Source: Candidatus Nomurabacteria bacterium (GTDB lineage: Bacteria; Patescibacteriota; Patescibacteriia; HK-STAS-PATE-3). From it: a stretch of DNA of 64,000 nucleotides. Made by a program: the position numbers and the translations under genes. The stretch covers positions 896,001-960,000 of the forward strand of contig CP060223.1 of assembly GCA_023898465.1 (NCBI GenBank), given 5' to 3'. Of this stretch, positions 1 through 30,379 are shown one piece after another. Every line of letters begins with the position of its first letter. Positions within the stretch are counted from its first letter, which is position 1. The notes under the pieces were generated by a model that was not told the origin of the DNA, searched no databases, and saw only the letters and a list, made by a program, of their open reading frames with translations.

Positions 1-399
1 CCTCCTCGCTTCATTAATGCCGCGTTGATACCGGCGACTGCTTCAATCGAGGGAGCAAAAACCGTGTGATGTACACGGCGCACCTTACCGCCGTGCGAGT
101 AAATACACGACAACTCTGTGGCGCAAATAAAGTGTACTTCCTCATCGCTCTTTTCGGTGAAGCGCGCATCTTTGACTCGATACTCTGGCTTCAAACGGTA
201 GAGACCATCCAGGCTGGGTTCTAGCTTCTCTTGTAACTCTGGAAACCACTTGGGATGCGTAAAATCGCCGGTCGCCATTAAATGCAAACCTTTAATGCGT
301 GCCCATAAATCGATATTCTCTAAAGTAAGCTGAGGGGAACAAGCTCGAGCGTATTTGGAATGAATATGGAGGTCAGCAATGATTTGCATACTTGGGTAT
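1..399 (-). CDS. PHP-domain protein, EndoQ-like (N-terminal part; gene continues past the window start)
   Basis: Reverse-strand translation from the ATG at 399 gives MQIIADLHIHSKYARACSP...GLHLMATGDFTHPKWF...KVRRVHHTVFAPSIE. This has PHP metal-binding motifs (DLHIHS, RVHH) and resembles the endonuclease Q N-terminus. The ORF has no stop inside the window, so it is absent from the ORF track. Confidence 0.55.
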
Positions 400-18992: not shown

Positions 18993-19068
18993 GCGCGCCT
19001 AGCTCAATGGTTAGAGCAGTCGGCTTATATCCGACCGGTTCCAGGTTCGAGCCCTGGGGCGCGCACCA
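18993..19068 (+). tRNA. tRNA-Ile with a UAU anticodon, CCA encoded
   Basis: Manual cloverleaf. Acceptor gcgcgcc/ggcgcgc, D stem gctc/gagc, anticodon stem gtcgg/ccgac, loop cttatat (anticodon tat), T arm ccagg-ttcgagc-cctgg. Confidence 0.8.
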
Positions 19069-22714: not shown

Positions 22715-23649
22715 ACATTGCCGCTATAGAAAAAGATATCGAAGTAGACGCCGCACATGACGGGGCGCGTTTAGATCGCTTCCTGGTTGATCATATTGAG
22801 GGCATTTCACGCGCTGAGCTGCAACGTTGGATTAAGCAAGGTGAGGTTCGAGTGAATGGGAAAAATGCTATTCCTCATCAAGCGCTGAAAGTTTGCGATC
22901 GCATTCACATCGAGCACCAAGCATCCGAACAACACACGCCGGATGCTCTAGCTGCTATTCAAGTGCTAGCCGAAGAAAAAGATTTCCTCATCATCTCAAA
23001 ACCTTCTGGCGTCCTCATGCACGCCACACCAAATTCGCACGAACAAACTTTAGCTGACTGGCTACTCGCGCACTACCCCGAGTTGCATGGTGTCGGCGAA
23101 GATCCTACACGACCTGGCATTGTGCATCGCCTTGATCGTGACGTATCCGGCCTCCTGCTCGTTGCCCGCACTCCAGACGCATTCATCTATTATAAAAATC
23201 TTTTTCAGGAACGGGCAATGGAAAAAGTATATATTGCCTTAGCTCACGGGAGCGTTGAAGAAGATGGAATGATTGAACTGCCCATCTCCCGTTCTCAATC
23301 AAACCGCCGGAGGATGGCAGCCCGAGCTGATGGTATAGGACGTCCGGCAATTACCGCCTATCATATTTTGAAGCGCTATCCTCATCTGACCTTACTTGAG
23401 GTGAAGCCAAAGACTGGACGCATGCATCAAATCCGCGTCCATCTCAATGCCATTGGCCACCCGATTGTGGGCGACCGTCTCTATGTAAAAAAGGCCAGCA
23501 AGGCCACCCAACTGCGACGACCCTTCCTCCATGCCCATAAACTAGCCTTTGTCGACCAAGAGGGCAAAGAAAGGGCCTATACTCTAGCAATACCCCAGGA
23601 ATTACAGGAGTATCTGGATACGCTTGACGAGAAACACGAAAATAGCTAG
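22711..23649 (+). CDS. RluA-family 23S rRNA pseudouridine synthase (RluD-like, with S4 domain)
   Basis: [20 protein letters not shown] catalytic Asp motif and an N-terminal S4-like region. Confidence 0.85.
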
Positions 23650-23689
23650 ACTGAGGGCCGATTTACATTTTCATTACTTTAGAAAAAAC

Positions 23690-24025
23690 ATGTCAGAAAC
23701 ACTAGCTCCGCTGCATGACAGCCTTCCTGAAGTGAAGTCAGGTCAGCAGGTCCGAGTCCATCAAAAAATCAGCGAGGGGGACAAGGAACGCAATCAGGTT
23801 TTTGAAGGCGTTGTCTTAAAGCGCAGTGGCGGCAAAGGCCCATCAGCCAGTATTACTGTTCGCAAAATTGGTGCTGGTGGCATTGGTGTAGAACGCATCT
23901 TCCCTCTTCATTCACCTGTCATCACCAAGGTTGAAGTAGTGGGTGAAGCAAAGACACGACGAGCAAATCTCAGCTATCTCCGTAAGCCTCGCGCCAAGCA
24001 GCTGAAGATGAAGTCAGTCAAATAA
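23690..24025 (+). CDS. rplS: 50S ribosomal protein L19
   Basis: [28 protein letters not shown]...[19 protein letters not shown] is the L19 signature. Start chosen at MSETLAP. Confidence 0.9.
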
Positions 24026-24029
24026 GTTC

Positions 24030-24046
24030 CTGCGCGGGTGGCGGAA
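24030..24046 (+). repeat. 17-nt copy of the tRNA-Leu(GAG) 5' end (ctgcgcgggtggcggaa), followed by two perfect 8-bp hairpins
   Basis: Identical to 24378-24394. Downstream are cccgaacc-acgcag-ggttcggg and cctgcacc-tcacaa-ggtgcagg. Confidence 0.6.
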
Positions 24047-24122
24047 CCCCGAACCACGCAGGGTTCGGGAGTCCTGCACCTCACAAGGTGCAGGGTGGGA
24101 GTAAACATTATGTACTCTTACT

Positions 24123-24371
24123 ATGTCATTCGTTTATATCCTGCTACTTAATAATCAAGAGCTCTACGTCGGATTTACTGCCGACCTTAATCGACGACTT
24201 GAAGAGCATCAACTAGGTAGGAGTGGTTACACAAGTAAGTACCTACCAGTAAAACTACTTTTTTATGAAGCCTTTACCAGCGAAGTGGATGCGCGGCGAA
24301 GAGAGAAATATTTAAAAACGAGTAAAGGTAAATCAACGATACGGATGATGCTCCGTACTACACTGCAGTAA
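24123..24371 (+). CDS. GIY-YIG nuclease family protein (YhbQ/UPF0213-like, 82 aa)
   Basis: VYILLLNNQELYVGFTADLNRRLEEHQLG matches GIY-YIG motifs. Confidence 0.8.
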   Translation: MSFVYILLLNNQELYVGFTADLNRRLEEHQLGRSGYTSKYLPVKLLFYEAFTSEVDARRREKYLKTSKGKSTIRMMLRTTLQ

Positions 24372-24378
24372 TATATCT

Positions 24379-24464
24379 GCGCGGGTGGCGGAATGGTATA
24401 CGCGCTAGCTTGAGGTGCTAGTGGCCGCAAGGCCTTGGAGGTTCAAGTCCTCTCCCGCGCACCA
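24379..24464 (+). tRNA. tRNA-Leu(GAG), type II with a long variable arm
   Basis: Acceptor gcgcggg/cccgcgc, anticodon stem ctagc/gctag, loop ttgaggt, variable arm tggccgcaaggcct, CCA encoded. Confidence 0.9.
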
Positions 24465-24575
24465 CGTGAAGCGTGGTGCTAAATAGCTGAGCAAAATTAG
24501 ACATACCACCGTAGCAAAAGCTGCGTTGCTTTTAAATTGGATAGACTCTTCACTGCTTAAACTCAAATGGTCTTC

Positions 24576-24797
24576 TCAGATGAGTATTAGCAAAACACAC
24601 ACAAGAATTTGCCCTAGGAGAAGTCCTGCACCAACCTGACGACGACCATCAATAATCCGTGCAAATCCAAGTGCAAAGAAAACTATAAAACCGCCTGATA
24701 CAAAAACTAAACTAGCAGGCGCTTGCATGAGCGCTATGTTCCATGCAAAAAACTGATAGAGAAAACTGAGAACGCAAAAAATTATTACTTTTTTCAT
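24576..24797 (-). CDS. hypothetical small membrane protein (73 aa)
   Basis: Two predicted TM helices. Located between tRNA genes. Confidence 0.35.
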   Translation of the reverse strand: MKKVIIFCVLSFLYQFFAWNIALMQAPASLVFVSGGFIVFFALGFARIIDGRRQVGAGLLLGQILVCVLLILI

Positions 24798-24923
24798 AAA
24801 AGGAAATGGACATCGTATTTGTATATATTTAATCGCACGCCTAGCTCTTTTGTTTCATGAAAGCTCGCTGTATTAATTCCAAAATCATGCTACTATGCTA
24901 GCAAGTAATTTTACTCTACCTCT

Positions 24924-25163
24924 ATGAAAAAAATTCTCGCTACCTTTTCATTCATACTTTTAGCCAGTCCATCCATTGCCTCAGCCCACACTGGCGTAGA
25001 ACACACAGGGACTTTTTGGCATATTTTTCTCCACCTGCTTAGCGAACCAGATCACATCTTCATAATAGGATCTATCGTTATCCTGGGTTATGGCGTACTG
25101 CTTCATACGAAACCACAGAGGAGTTTATCTCGTGTTCCACGTGGAAGCATTGCTAAGTATTGA
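24924..25163 (+). CDS. hypothetical small secreted/membrane protein (79 aa)
   Basis: Signal-peptide-like N-terminus MKKILATFSFILLASPSIASA, then a TM helix. Confidence 0.35.
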   Translation: MKKILATFSFILLASPSIASAHTGVEHTGTFWHIFLHLLSEPDHIFIIGSIVILGYGVLLHTKPQRSLSRVPRGSIAKY

Positions 25164-25203: not shown

Positions 25204-25280
25204 GGGCGGTTAGCTCAGTTGGTTAGAGCGCCTCGTTTACACCGAGGAGGTCGGGGGTTCGACTCCCTCACCGCCCACCA
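25204..25280 (+). tRNA. tRNA-Val(UAC)
   Basis: Acceptor gggcggt/accgccc, anticodon stem cctcg/cgagg, loop tttacac, CCA encoded. Confidence 0.9.
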
Positions 25281-25355
25281 CACTTAGCGTGGCCGACCAT
25301 ACAAACCATGGCTAGTAATTGAGGACGCGCTCTATAGATGTAAGTAGTGACTTTT

Positions 25356-28262: not shown

Positions 28263-28338
28263 TGGTGGACCCTACCGGGCTCGAACCGGTCACCTCCGCG
28301 TTGCAAACGCGGCGCTCTACCAAATGAGCTAAGGGCCC
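28263..28338 (-). tRNA. tRNA-Ala(UGC)
   Basis: Reverse complement gggccct...tttgcaa...agggtcc-a-cca. The G3:U70 Ala identity pair is present. Confidence 0.9.
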
Positions 28339-28626
28339 TTAATTCAGACTATTCGAAACAGGTGAAAAAATATCCCGTAGAAGAGATGGAACAAATCCAG
28401 TCAGTGTAAGAAAAACAATGAAAATCATGAGGATACCGAGAAGCTTTAAAAAAATTCTCGTACCACCCTCGGTACCGAGATGCTGCTCAGCCCATTCGAT
28501 CCGACCAAACCAGTTCATGAAAAAATCAGTCTTGATCACAAGTAGCGCACCTATCAGTATAACGATTCCACCAATTAAATATCGCATAACTCTTCTCGTA
28601 TTATTAACGCCCCCCCCTAGCACCAT
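28339..28626 (-). CDS. hypothetical small membrane protein
   Basis: 95-aa ORF with 2 TM helices. The start is ambiguous (MVLGGG or MRYLIGG). Confidence 0.35.
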   Translation of the reverse strand: MVLGGGVNNTRRVMRYLIGGIVILIGALLVIKTDFFMNWFGRIEWAEQHLGTEGGTRIFLKLLGILMIFIVFLTLTGFVPSLLRDIFSPVSNSLN

Positions 28627-28730
28627 CGAGTACTTGAGCTTGAAAAGCTAAGTACGAGATGAAAAGCGGCACGTTTGCAAAGGGCGCAGTCCGGCTTGGC
28701 CGGGCAAAGCCTGGAGCAAACGATGACGTG

Positions 28731-28807
28731 TGGTGGGCGATCCAGGAATCGAACCTGGGACCTCGTCATTATCAGTGACGCGCTCTAACCAACTGAGCTA
28801 ATCGCCC
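28731..28807 (-). tRNA. tRNA-Ile(GAU)
   Basis: Reverse complement gggcgat...cgtca-ctgataa-tgacg...atcgccc-a-cca. Confidence 0.9.
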
Positions 28808-28813
28808 ATGTTT

Positions 28814-28827
28814 GTTCCCCGTGGAAC
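28814..28827. repeat. 14-nt near-palindrome GTTCCCCGTGGAAC, 7 nt upstream of the tRNA-Ile(GAU) 5' end
   Basis: One of three copies of GTTCCYCGWGGAAC in the window. Confidence 0.5.
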
Positions 28828-28854
28828 ATGATGTAAAACTACATAACAACGCGG

Positions 28855-28940
28855 TGGTGCCGCCGGTCGGACTTGAACCGACATGAGGTTACCCTCAAGG
28901 GATTTTAAGTCCCTCGTGTCTACCATTCCACCACGGCGGC
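28855..28940 (-). tRNA. tRNA-Leu(UAA), type II
   Basis: Reverse complement gccgccg...aggga-cttaaaa-tccct, a long variable arm, and gtcgg-ttcaagt-ccgac-cggcggc-a-cca. Confidence 0.85.
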
Positions 28941-29043
28941 AAGCATTCAAAGCGAATACATGCCATATTTCAACACAAGAATGTCATTCATGCAAGACCA
29001 GCAGGAACCACATGCTAACACGAGTATTTCGGAAAAACAAGAC

Positions 29044-29721
29044 TTACTCGGGTTTATTAAACTCAATCTGCGAAGTAGACTCTTTGCTTCTGCGACTTTT
29101 AATAAACTCCCAGAGGGCGGGCAATAATGAAATAGCAATGATAGCAACTACGACAAAACTAAAATTCTCCTGGATAAAAGGAAGCCTGCCAAAAAAATAT
29201 CCTCCGAACAAGAAAATGCTGACCCAGAGGAATGCTCCAAGCACATTATAAGTGAAAAAGTGACGATATCGCATTAAGCCAACACCTGCAACAAAGGGAG
29301 CTATGGTACGAACAATTGGAACAAATCTCGCAATGACAATTGTCTTTGCTCCATACCTTTCATAAAAACGATGGGTACGGTCAAGATGCTCCTTCCTTAG
29401 CCAACGAGAATTTCTCAACTCATATACTCTTCGACCAAGGTGCTTCCCTATCCAATAGTTTAATCCATCGCCTAACACAGCCGCAGTAAACAGCAAGGCA
29501 AAGAGAAGTATAATATTTAGTGACCCTGCATCAGACAGCGCTCCAGCGGCAAAAAGAAGCGAATCCCCTGGCAAGAAGGGCATAATCACAATGCCCGTCT
29601 CAAGGAAGACAATACCAAAAAGAAGCGCATAGACCCAGGTGCCGTATGTGCTTATAGCTATTCCAAGGCTTTCATCTAAGTGGAGAAAGTATTGAGAAAT
29701 AGTGTGTAATAGCTCGTTCAA
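29044..29721 (-). CDS. DedA-family membrane protein
   Basis: GIVFLETGIVIMPFLPGDSLLFAAGAL and ARFVPIVRT DedA motifs. Confidence 0.85.
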   Translation of the reverse strand: MNELLHTISQYFLHLDESLGIAISTYGTWVYALLFGIVFLETGIVIMPFLPGDSLLFAAGALSDAGSLNIILLFALLFTAAVLGDGLNYWIGKHLGRRVYELRNSRWLRKEHLDRTHRFYERYGAKTIVIARFVPIVRTIAPFVAGVGLMRYRHFFTYNVLGAFLWVSIFLFGGYFFGRLPFIQENFSFVVVAIIAISLLPALWEFIKSRRSKESTSQIEFNKPE

Positions 29722-29796
29722 CTTGAATTAGATAATTGTTTCAGTATTTAGTCAAAATGTTATTTTATTTTTTTTGGCTAACTTTAGTGAGGCGAT

Positions 29797-29810
29797 GTTC
29801 CTCGAGGAAC
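29797..29810. repeat. perfect 14-nt palindrome GTTCCTCGAGGAAC
   Basis: Lies 11 nt 3' of tRNA-Ala(CGC) and about 75 nt upstream of the DedA start. Confidence 0.5.
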
Positions 29811-29820
29811 TTTTTAATTG

Positions 29821-29895
29821 TGGTGGACCAGAGGGGAGTTGAACCCCTGACCCCTGCAATGCGAATGCAGTGCTCTACCACTGAGCTACTGGCCC
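29821..29895 (-). tRNA. tRNA-Ala(CGC)
   Basis: Reverse complement gggccag...ctgca-ttcgcat-tgcag...ctggtcc-a-cca with the G3:U70 pair. Confidence 0.85.
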
Positions 29896-29901
29896 TAGTG
29901 T

Positions 29902-29915
29902 GTTCCTCGTGGAAC
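29902..29915. repeat. 14-nt near-palindrome GTTCCTCGTGGAAC, 7 nt upstream of the tRNA-Ala(CGC) 5' end
   Basis: Same spacing to the tRNA 5' end as the copy at 28814. Confidence 0.5.
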
Positions 29916-29945
29916 AAACGGATGGGAGGCCTAAATTATCTAACG

Positions 29946-30021
29946 TGGTGGACCCTACCGGGCTCGAACCGGTCACCTCTTCCATGCCATGGAAGCGCTC
30001 TACCAAATGAGCTAAGGGCCC
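29946..30021 (-). tRNA. tRNA-Ala(GGC)
   Basis: Body is almost identical to tRNA-Ala(UGC), but the anticodon stem-loop is cttcc-atggcat-ggaag. G3:U70 present. Confidence 0.9.
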
Positions 30022-30073
30022 ATGTGAACTACGGATATTTTAAGCTTCTTTTCTCCGTACCTGCCTCAGCCTT

Positions 30074-30145
30074 TGCCCCCACCATGAATCGAACATGGAT
30101 CCAGGGCTTAGGAGTCCCTTGTTCTATCCTTTGAACTATGGGGGC
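30074..30145 (-). tRNA. tRNA-Arg(CCU); no encoded CCA
   Basis: Reverse complement gccccca...aggga-ctcctaa-gccct (A31:G39 mismatch)...ccatg-ttcgatt-catgg-tgggggc-a. The loop CUCCUAA matches the E. coli argW loop. Confidence 0.7.
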
Positions 30146-30379
30146 AGGGGCGGCGGCAGGCAATTTTCTTTTACCCGAGATTTTGTAACTTTTGTAAAAA
30201 GTTATTTTTTTGCTAGCCTTTGCAAAAAATAAGCGTCGTAGAATATTATGTTAAAAATGCATCTAAGTTACGAGCCATTATTACACCAAGTGGCCATTTT
30301 CGCAATGCCTAAAGAGCCAGATCGATTGACACAGTAGCATCAACAACTTATTGTTACCACGTTTACCACTCATATACAT

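Follow-up and report, generated by a model that had tools for sequence, protein, structure and literature searches.

The GIY-YIG homing endonuclease SegB is encoded in the tRNA gene cluster of T4, and GIY-YIG homing endonucleases such as SegB leave 2-nucleotide (nt) 3′ overhangs (PMC2330249). In fungal mitochondria, mobile open reading frames (mORFs) create hybrid genes, as in atp6 of Allomyces and in atp6, atp9, cox2 and nad3 of Glomus (PMC3630166), and double-hairpin elements (DHEs) occur in the mitochondria of chytrids and fission yeast (PMC10085805, citing Paquin et al. 2000). The rRNA genes of bacteria of the candidate phyla radiation (CPR) contain non-intron insertions encoding GIY-YIG proteins, most rRNA insertions of the study in question were placed at the tops or bases of stem-loops, and the authors judged these GIY-YIG genes to stand outside homing spread (PMC11270868); a study of group I introns located within tRNA genes of Patescibacteria makes no mention of GIY-YIG (PMC13011429). 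Here, we analyzed a stretch of 64,000 nt from a Candidatus Nomurabacteria bacterium (assembly GCA_023898465.1, contig CP060223.1, positions 896,001 to 960,000 of the forward strand; hereafter "the window"), in which a free-standing gene for an 82-amino-acid (aa) GIY-YIG nuclease lies between the ribosomal protein gene rplS and a tRNA-Leu(GAG) gene, preceded by a partial copy of this tRNA gene and a pair of hairpins. Very probably, the locus is an inserted member of a recurrent family of tRNA-associated GIY-YIG/double-hairpin elements, which is widespread in ultra-small (CPR) bacteria. A full-text literature search found no published description of this arrangement of tRNA, double hairpin and GIY-YIG gene, which is not proof of novelty.

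The features of the locus are collected in Table 1. The 17-mer CTGCGCGGGTGGCGGAA occurs exactly twice in the window, with starts 347 nt apart; the chance expectation is about 0.15 matches even with 3 mismatches tolerated. Since ARAGORN and Rfam both place the start of the tRNA at 24379, the 17-mer comprises 2 spacer bases and tRNA positions 1–15. Thereby, the original prediction of a 17-nt tRNA start duplicated 348 bp upstream of the intact gene holds with regard to the exact 17-nt repeat, but not with regard to the length of its tRNA-derived part. The upstream copy (copy 1) begins after 4 nt of spacer 3′ of the rplS stop codon, and its first tRNA-derived base (24032) lies 6 nt past this codon. 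The two perfect 8-bp hairpins predicted to follow it were both found, each with a 6-nt loop (hairpin 1, HP1, stem 24048–24055/24062–24069; hairpin 2, HP2, stem 24073–24080/24087–24094). As had also been proposed, the GIY-YIG open reading frame (ORF) is the sole homology-supported gene between the two copies, and its stop codon is followed by a spacer of 7 nt and then by tRNA-Leu(GAG). The element copy spans 24047–24376, together with the repeat. No second copy of the element was found in the window by tblastn and blastn, and no second hairpin pair in the 64 kb by a covariance model of the pair (R1, filters off).

For comparison of the rplS–tRNA-Leu interval, as suggested along with the original prediction, contigs encoding the closest L19 proteins were used as relatives of the locus. 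The site is filled in L087, which has the whole arrangement (L19 identity 99%; 94.9% at the nucleotide level across 2.5 kb), and in L001 (L19 88%, GIY-YIG 85%), where gene, hairpins and repeat are all present as well. In L001 the repeat extends to 22 nt (CATATCTGCGCGGGTGGCGGAA), i.e. the entire 7-nt post-stop spacer plus tRNA positions 1–15, and starts directly after the GIY-YIG stop codon. Two relatives with 65% identical L19 proteins are empty: the rplS stop codon is followed by 18 nt in L089 and by 8 nt in L088 and then by tRNA-Leu(GAG), and neither interval contains a GIY-YIG gene, hairpins or the repeat. The gene order upstream in L088 (CCA-adding enzyme, pseudouridine synthase, rplS) is that of the window, and rplS marks the ancestral left flank of the tRNA-Leu(GAG) gene. 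With 3 filled sites, including the window, and 2 empty ones, the presence/absence pattern of homing endonucleases at a conserved target was found, and not a pattern in which all relatives carry the gene and lack the repeat.

The comparison shows, as reconstructed from these contigs, an ancestral state of rplS, 8–18 nt and tRNA-Leu(GAG). Because rplS was directly followed by the tRNA gene in this reconstruction, copy 1 is taken to be the original tRNA 5′ end, displaced and severed in the D loop after position 15. The downstream copy (copy 2) provides the working tRNA gene with its regenerated 5′ end, and tRNA-Leu(GAG) is the target restored 3′ of the element. About 347 bp now separate the 15-nt remnant from the complete tRNA gene in the window lineage. 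Together with the recurrence of the layout at many tRNA genes described below, the filled and empty relatives bear out the proposal of a small homing-type GIY-YIG insertion that regenerated the tRNA 5′ end. Its alternative, a remnant pseudo-tRNA, keeps some truth in that the 15-nt copy is a displaced original 5′ end, but this end is a by-product of insertion and not an independent pseudogene. As to whether the regenerated 5′ end was imported or copied in place, the two copies are identical at 17/17 positions and just one position is informative against the tRNAs of the empty sites; as the L001 repeat includes the 7-nt spacer, the duplication could have arisen in place.

In L087, the intact GIY-YIG ORF at 1659–1907, whose protein is identical to that of the window, was omitted from the source gene calls; small genes of this kind are easily overlooked in annotation.

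Table 1. Features of the rplS–tRNA-Leu(GAG) locus, in positions of the 64-kb window.
Feature	Position	Strand	Evidence or remark
rplS (ribosomal protein L19)	23690..24025	+	PF01245, E = 3.1e-33; upstream neighbor
Direct-repeat copy 1 (2 nt spacer + tRNA-Leu(GAG) nt 1–15)	24030..24046	+	exact 17-nt repeat
Double-hairpin module	24047..24094	+	HP1 24048–24069, HP2 24073–24094; between tRNA positions 15 and 16
Leader, hairpins to start codon (28 nt)	24095..24122	+	
GIY-YIG nuclease gene (82 aa, catalytic domain only, Slx1/UPF0213-like)	24123..24371	+	PF01541, E = 3.6e-14
Direct-repeat copy 2 (last 2 nt of 7-nt post-stop spacer + tRNA nt 1–15)	24377..24393	+	
Intact tRNA-Leu(GAG) with encoded CCA	24379..24464	+	ARAGORN; Rfam tRNA 55 bits, E = 9.8e-11
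7-bp hairpin CACCACG/CGTGGTG, loop tgaag	24460..24478	+	read from sequence; the tRNA's own ACCA end paired with the trailer

To see how often the layout recurs, a protein profile (A1) built from 29 homologs was used, which yielded 80 loci from species-representative genomes and 80 from metagenomes, in each scan the best 80 candidates confirmed by tblastn. Association with tRNA genes was determined by ARAGORN and tblastn on non-redundant copies, whereby a tRNA gene was regarded as next to the GIY-YIG gene if it was co-oriented and either started −70 to +30 nt from the stop-codon end or ended at most 300 nt before the start codon. Such an adjoining tRNA gene was found for 60/86 genome copies and 53/88 metagenome copies (113/174), with a rough chance expectation below 1%, given about 45 tRNA genes per megabase-sized genome. 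It lies 3′ of the gene in about half of the associated copies and 5′ in the remainder. The named genome loci are mostly from CPR bacteria, with some from Omnitrophota, Lentisphaerae and others.

In about 29 of the 37 loci with a downstream tRNA, the first 12 nt of this tRNA are repeated 5′ of the gene, and many of the repeats are perfect over 36–46 nt. Insertion points were determined with a seed-chaining script, which resolved part of the loci, and clear cases alone were used. The repeats break at the D loop (position 12–24), the anticodon loop (35–37) or the T loop (55–57), directly into GC-rich hairpins. In the clearly resolved cases, 5–9 nt of tRNA sequence, the 3′ strand of the interrupted arm, resume after the hairpins, as in L007 (CTTAA[..]AAATCTC), L012 (GGTTCG[..]AATCCTC), L018 (TTGGCA[..]GACGC) and L077 (GGTGAAA[..]TGGTATAGC); in L044 and L049 the resumption is complete, up to the 3′ end. 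Where the tRNA is upstream, the hairpins begin at most 3 nt from its 3′ end in 11 loci. The recurrent order is tRNA or 5′ fragment, hairpin pair, 10–30 nt, GIY-YIG gene, 0–12 nt and intact tRNA. In many CPR genomes it was seen for Leu, Gln, Ser and other tRNAs, of which the hairpins occupy the D, anticodon or T loop or else the 3′ end. An R1 hairpin pair 10–30 nt before the start codon, set into a loop of the tRNA copy, was found at about 35 loci; in the window it scores 56 bits and lies after tRNA position 15 and 28 nt before the ATG. Also, with its 7-nt spacer, the window has a co-oriented intact tRNA gene inside the limit of about 12 nt past the stop codon by which the family is defined here. 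Its insertion point, GGCGGAA^TGGTA (D loop 15/16), is shared by the tRNA-Leu isoacceptors of L030 and L013, and L077 reads GGTGAAA^TGGTA.

Several loci have more complex structures. Tandem arrays consist of three copies in L012 and two each in L059 and L080. The array of L012 (1501–2640) contains three 394-nt units, each composed of tRNA-Gln 1–57, a hairpin pair, AATCCTC and the GIY-YIG gene, followed by an intact tRNA-Gln(CTG), and the repeat is perfect over 409 nt. Extra hairpins occupy other loops of dead tRNA copies in L002, L022, L030, L013 and L059, so that dead copies seem to accumulate hairpins: L030 (1340–1500) has them in the D and anticodon loops, one seemingly nested within another's loop, and the displaced copy of L002 (2843–2960) in the D, anticodon and T loops. 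Downstream of the GIY-YIG gene and tRNA-Leu(CAA) of L009, a run of 3′ tRNA fragments (1842–2470) was found, each with a class-A hairpin pair (the class of the window; see below) in the anticodon loop (gactc[..]aaaatc) or T loop (ggttcg[..]gattcc). Some of this run is present in duplicate, at a period of about 194 nt; another hairpin follows tRNA-Met. Hairpin pairs therefore also exist away from GIY-YIG start codons and in 3′ fragments. Single genomes may harbor several nuclease lineages at different tRNAs (L012/L071, L015/L073, L049/L052).

Elements of typical CPR type were also found in L013, L011, L019, L027 and further loci of "binchicken" metagenome-assembled genomes, whose records are titled "uncultured Gammaproteobacteria", Bdellovibrionales or Victivallales. 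Either such labels are unreliable or the element crossed phyla; GIY-YIG genes are reported to be among those transferred out of Patescibacteria (PMC12455944).

The hairpin module was analyzed on an alignment (A3) of 16 hairpin pairs of the type found in the window. The two-hairpin structure is supported by 95.3% of cells being paired over the 16 pairs, and 13 of its 20 base pairs have changed on both sides. The covariation score is 0.449, compared with 0.123 for shuffled alignments (0/500 reached it) and at most 0.08 with slid partners. Stem tops and loops are conserved (HP1 ACC-ACGTRG-GGT; HP2 ACC-CNACGT-GGT), HP2 is approximately the reverse complement of HP1, and the two loops are mutually complementary. 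Because of this relation, R1 scores both strands alike: its single hit in the window has 56 bits on the plus and 49 bits on the minus strand, and the pairs of the other loci have similar scores. In a second hairpin class, GTCATCCGAC / GTCGAATGAC, the two hairpins are inverted relative to each other in the same way. Insertions into anticodon and T loops read XY-HP1-rc(XY)-HP2-XY, where XY is the target dinucleotide, namely TA (Leu-TAA), CA/TG/CA (Leu-CAA), TG/CA/TG (Gln-CTG) and CG (Ser-CGA and T loop). A 2-nt target duplication was thereby seen with four dinucleotides (TA, CA, TG, CG), plus an inverted copy in the spacer. Hairpin symmetry and duplication point to events on DNA rather than RNA, and the hairpin pair, conserved across loci, is the signature of the element family; this role, like the insertion point at D-loop position 15/16, goes beyond the original prediction. 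The idea that HP2 is a distorted T-arm had to be given up, as HP2 belongs to this conserved hairpin family and the tRNA covariance model proposed for 24030–24110 gave no match there even at E ≤ 10.

The protein matches PF01541 over residues 2–70 (53 bits; cut-off 22.6). Y5, Y15, G17, R25, H29 and E61 are invariant in the 29 homologs, i.e. the catalytic residues are intact, and the AlphaFold model is a confident GIY-YIG alpha/beta fold (predicted local distance difference test, pLDDT, 93.8). In a profile search against PDB sequences, 1zg2 (1.9e-13) and 1ywl (5.2e-12) came first, with SLX1 and T4 EndoII next, near 1e-3, and in Foldseek 1zg2 (UPF0213) and Slx1 rank above the catalytic domain of I-TevI. 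The nearest solved relatives are thus the UPF0213 proteins BH0048 and EF2693, then the Slx1 nuclease domain, with I-TevI farther away, and the protein is UPF0213/Slx1-like, closer to this branch in sequence and fold than to other GIY-YIG branches. YhbQ of E. coli is also a UPF0213 protein; we know of no function or tRNA linkage of this family. The substrates of Slx1 are branched and stem-loop DNA, in keeping with target sites made up of stems and loops, but Slx1 is not a mobile protein and functions in DNA repair together with Slx4. The model of group I intron endonucleases (TIGR01453) aligned to residues 1–29 only, with 22 bits compared to a cut-off of 56 bits, and the canonical two-domain architecture of I-TevI and Seg proteins (about 200 aa or more) is absent in 82 aa made up of the catalytic domain alone. 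Searches with PADLOC and NCBIfam assigned the protein to no defense system or named family, and a scan of viral contigs with the protein profile found no relatives and no sign of a phage vector.

In a neighbor-joining tree of 86 nuclease copies, clade membership goes with target tRNA and hairpin class. The clade of the window combines class-A hairpins with tRNA-Leu (TAA, CAA, TAG, GAG) and a second one class-B hairpins with Gln-CTG, Ser-CGA and Ser-GCT, and others have upstream Ser, Asn, Gln-TTG or Arg tRNAs.

Selection was estimated from the filled relatives. Between the window and L001, the GIY-YIG gene has a synonymous divergence (dS) of 0.99 and a ratio of non-synonymous to synonymous divergence (dN/dS) of 0.10, compared to 1.03 and 0.06 for rplS; the GIY-YIG genes of the window and L087 differ by 7 synonymous and 0 non-synonymous changes. 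Identity to L001 is 17/17 in the upstream repeat copy, 31/32 in the hairpin stems, 7/12 in the hairpin loops, 14/28 in the leader and 53/82 (65%) at third codon positions, and tRNA-Leu(GAG) is identical at 86/86 positions in both L001 and L087. With neutral positions diverged by about 40–50% in the window lineage, these alignments show purifying selection on the gene, the hairpin stems and the 15-nt remnant; gene conversion with the tRNA may also have kept the remnant identical.

The leader contains a few further features. Its region of 100 nt folds more stably than shuffled sequences (z = −5.4), and a third hairpin is predicted there which is not conserved. The positions around 24096–24106 may be a decayed continuation of tRNA nt 16–25 (TGGTATACGC); the equivalent place in L001 reads TGGTGAC, nearer to the TGGTATAC of the tRNA. 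A scan of the leader for promoters and terminators found no promoter-like or terminator site. No ribosome-binding sequence of Shine-Dalgarno type precedes the GIY-YIG ATG itself. GGGAG was observed 8 nt 5′ of an ATG at 24110, which opens a 13-codon ORF (MYSYYVIRLYPAT; span 24097–24151) in a different frame that overlaps the GIY-YIG start at 24123 and is not conserved in L001; it could be an upstream ORF or serve translational coupling.

Compared with the described systems, the element resembles SegB as an intron-free GIY-YIG gene among or next to tRNA genes that is co-inherited with its flanks (PMC2330249). The 2-nt 3′ overhangs of SegB match the 2-nt target duplication in relatives of the element, but not the D-loop site of the window, which has none. 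Proteins of SegB type differ by their size of about 200 aa or more and their DNA-binding domain, Seg genes lie between genes, duplicating nothing and without a hairpin module, and unlike SegB the window protein has no relatives in the viral contigs scanned. With mORFs, the element shares the insertion of an endonuclease gene together with a replacement gene end, the displaced native end persisting as an adjacent dead fragment (PMC3630166), and in both the target is spared without splicing. The order in the window, displaced nt 1–15 (24032–24046), nuclease gene and working tRNA gene, is the mirror image of the mORF order. In contrast, mORFs are mitochondrial, mostly encode LAGLIDADG proteins and target protein-coding genes at the 3′ (C-terminal) end, and their inserted end is foreign and divergent (PMC3630166), whereas the element has a bacterial host, a tRNA target, a replaced 5′ end, usually identical duplicates and a hairpin pair at the break.

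DHEs are likewise short, GC-rich, paired hairpins thought to be mobile, situated between genes and inside structural RNA genes (PMC10085805). They are not known to be linked with a single nuclease gene or with the loops of tRNAs, and sequence kinship is not expected. The CPR rRNA insertions stem from the same bacterial group and also carry GIY-YIG genes in insertions other than group I or II introns, but they concern rRNA only, with tRNA never mentioned and no target duplication or double hairpin reported (PMC11270868). Integrase islands and prophages use the same sites in tRNA genes, namely segments coding for loops between the inverted stem repeats and the 3′ end, and like the element they carry a partial tRNA copy by which the gene stays intact. 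Williams reportedly described, in 2002, the anticodon and T loops and the 3′ end as the sublocations preferred by integrases within tRNA genes. Such islands employ a tyrosine or serine recombinase and reach kilobases in length, and they duplicate the tRNA 3′ part, whereas the element has no recombinase, measures about 350 bp and duplicates the 5′ part.

On this basis, the locus is likely a homing-type element directed at tRNA genes, which are spared through regeneration of their 5′ part, with the tRNA halves serving as homology arms. The following mechanism is plausible in the light of the compared loci. The nuclease, probably a dimer, would recognize DNA structure or symmetry like its Slx1/UPF0213 relatives and cut tRNA genes in the segments coding for loops, which are short duplex spacers between the inverted repeats of the stems. 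A broken empty allele would then be repaired by copying from a filled one: the end with tRNA 1..x would pair with the displaced fragment as left arm, the end with x+1..3′ with the working tRNA gene as right arm, and everything between the two arms would be copied. With displaced fragment and tRNA as arms, no other homology would be needed, and entry into any genome with a similar tRNA would therefore be possible. At the break, the hairpin pair would protect the displaced copy from being cut and show where the left arm ends, and duplication of the 5′ part would keep an essential single-copy tRNA intact, a role like that of splicing for intron-borne homing endonucleases. Tandem arrays might result from a regenerated tRNA being cut again and repaired out of register, or from unequal crossing-over. 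In the window, co-transcription probably extends from rplS across the nuclease gene to the tRNA, with the nuclease mRNA lying between the two, and 7 nt past the stop codon RNase P would free the tRNA; because transcription still has to reach the tRNA from upstream, read-through of the module is probable.

Several points weigh against this interpretation. Judged from its dS, which equals that of rplS, the element is vertically inherited in the window lineage, and with a single copy in 64 kb it may be immobile or domesticated there. The catalytic domain of 82 aa comes without an obvious DNA-binding domain for specificity. The D-loop insertions (48–49 nt), including that of the window, lack target duplication and spacer; an insert at the same D-loop site is present in L030, L013 and L077. 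Cleavage and mobility are deduced throughout from comparison of loci, the recurrence figures describe the subfamily of the best-matching candidates and not all of UPF0213, and the hairpin pairs of A3 were picked by eye. Also, the regenerated tRNA should remain a target, and the mechanism neither accounts for the escape of the host from self-cutting nor explains the origin of the first duplication.

A rival explanation is that of a domesticated host gene: the element would have arrived once and no longer move, and nuclease, hairpins and remnant would serve the cell, for example by cutting the DNA of other tRNA-integrating elements or by resolving hairpin or cruciform DNA at tRNA genes. The strong purifying selection, the vertical inheritance since the split from L001 that follows from the dS values, the conserved stems and remnant, the single copy and the lack of relatives in the scanned viral contigs would all suit such a gene, and homing endonuclease genes that no longer move normally decay. 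Ongoing homing within populations would maintain the gene as well, however, and presence and absence among relatives, tandem arrays, genomes harboring several lineages at different tRNAs, the duplication of 2 nt of the target and additional hairpins within dead tRNA fragments speak against a resident gene. The protein also matches no known defense system. We consider domestication unlikely. A device for expression at the RNA level, in which the gene rides tRNA transcription units and fragment and hairpins are signals for mRNA processing, stability or translation, would make the tRNA association a matter of expression and not of DNA targeting. The gene is always co-oriented with its tRNA, its stop codon lies 0–12 nt from the tRNA start so that RNase P could form the mRNA 3′ end, the leader has no promoter-like site, and stem covariation suits RNA as well as single-stranded DNA, with complementary loops that could form a kissing pair. 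Nevertheless, near-equal scores on both strands are a symmetry without obvious use in RNA, the target duplication and the inverted spacer copy are scars at the DNA level, the L009 pairs lie in 3′ fragments downstream of a tRNA and far from GIY-YIG start codons, and the duplication of the tRNA 5′ part would go unexplained, which makes such a device improbable.

Mere coincidence, i.e. a local tandem duplication with a decayed pseudo-tRNA, hairpins acting as the rplS terminator and the GIY-YIG gene as a chance neighbor, could draw on the frequency of short tRNA fragments and of GC-rich hairpins behind ribosomal protein genes, and on a remnant of just 15 nt. The three-part layout at dozens of unrelated tRNA loci effectively refutes it, and the hairpin pair comes from a family with conserved tops; moreover, no T run follows HP1 or HP2, and an efficient terminator would presumably silence what is probably the only tRNA-Leu(GAG) of the genome. 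Coincidence is hence hardly credible. Other known arrangements were rejected as well. For a group I intron, no intron family was detected in 23500–25000 at E ≤ 10, where the real tRNA is the sole Rfam match, with no intron, ribozyme or tRNA-like match in the leader, and the downstream tRNA forms a complete gene by itself. An integrase-type tRNA island does not fit a repeat of the 5′ part with the GIY-YIG gene as the only homology-supported gene between the copies. A tRNA gene or pseudogene at 24030–24110 found no match in ARAGORN or Rfam at E ≤ 10, and in 24030–24122 both programs likewise detected no tRNA or other RNA family.

Beyond the element, the hairpin at the 3′ end of tRNA-Leu(GAG) is retained in L001 and L087, with other loops, and is missing from the empty site of L089. 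It is the only strong one (−15.7 kcal/mol) among the 10 tRNAs of the window, and R1 scores it with just 7.5 bits. The trailer of tRNA-Val(TAC) (25204–25280), which at 25281–25300 reads CACTTAGCGTGGCC, resembles the trailer of the L087 tRNA-Leu(GAG), CGCTTAGCGTGGCG. Because tRNA-Val(TAC) has a similar, weak trailer, the 3′ hairpin is only a possible part of the element, and a 3′ trailer motif shared by tRNA genes of the window lineage may be present. Among the other tRNA genes, ARAGORN reported a tRNA-Ile with anticodon TAT (UAU) at 18993–19068, an uncommon bacterial way of reading AUA, and a cluster of six lies on the minus strand (28263–30146; Ala-TGC, Ile-GAT, Leu-TAA, Ala-CGC, Ala-GGC, Arg-CCT), of which Ala-TGC and Ile-GAT are the pair usual in rRNA spacers.

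More broadly, the homing-type element proposed here might represent an unrecognized class of mobile DNA in bacteria, a possibility we put forward tentatively and regard as somewhat doubtful. It would consist of a structure-specific GIY-YIG nuclease of about 80 aa and a two-fold-symmetric double hairpin that insert into the loop segments of stem-loops, i.e. into D, anticodon and T loops of tRNAs, tRNA 3′ ends and the loops of its own hairpins, and that act by 5′ duplication and tRNA-half arms as a context-independent gene drive crossing CPR lineages. There is a real chance that the element deserves a class of its own.

If the homing-type reading is true, regeneration of the target by duplication, so far described only for fungal mitochondrial protein genes, would be a third way, beside self-splicing introns and inteins, for selfish nuclease genes to live within essential genes. 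It would also provide a function and a natural substrate for the large, uncharacterized UPF0213/YhbQ-like family of mini GIY-YIG proteins. A nuclease of 80 aa that reads DNA shape at stem-loop sequences would be of mechanistic interest and a potential tool, and the element is made experimentally tractable by having three small conserved parts to mutate, namely gene, hairpins and 15-nt remnant, all under strong purifying selection. For CPR genomes, the element would explain stray tRNA fragments and hairpin-laden pseudo-tRNAs, and thereby affect the annotation of their tRNA genes.

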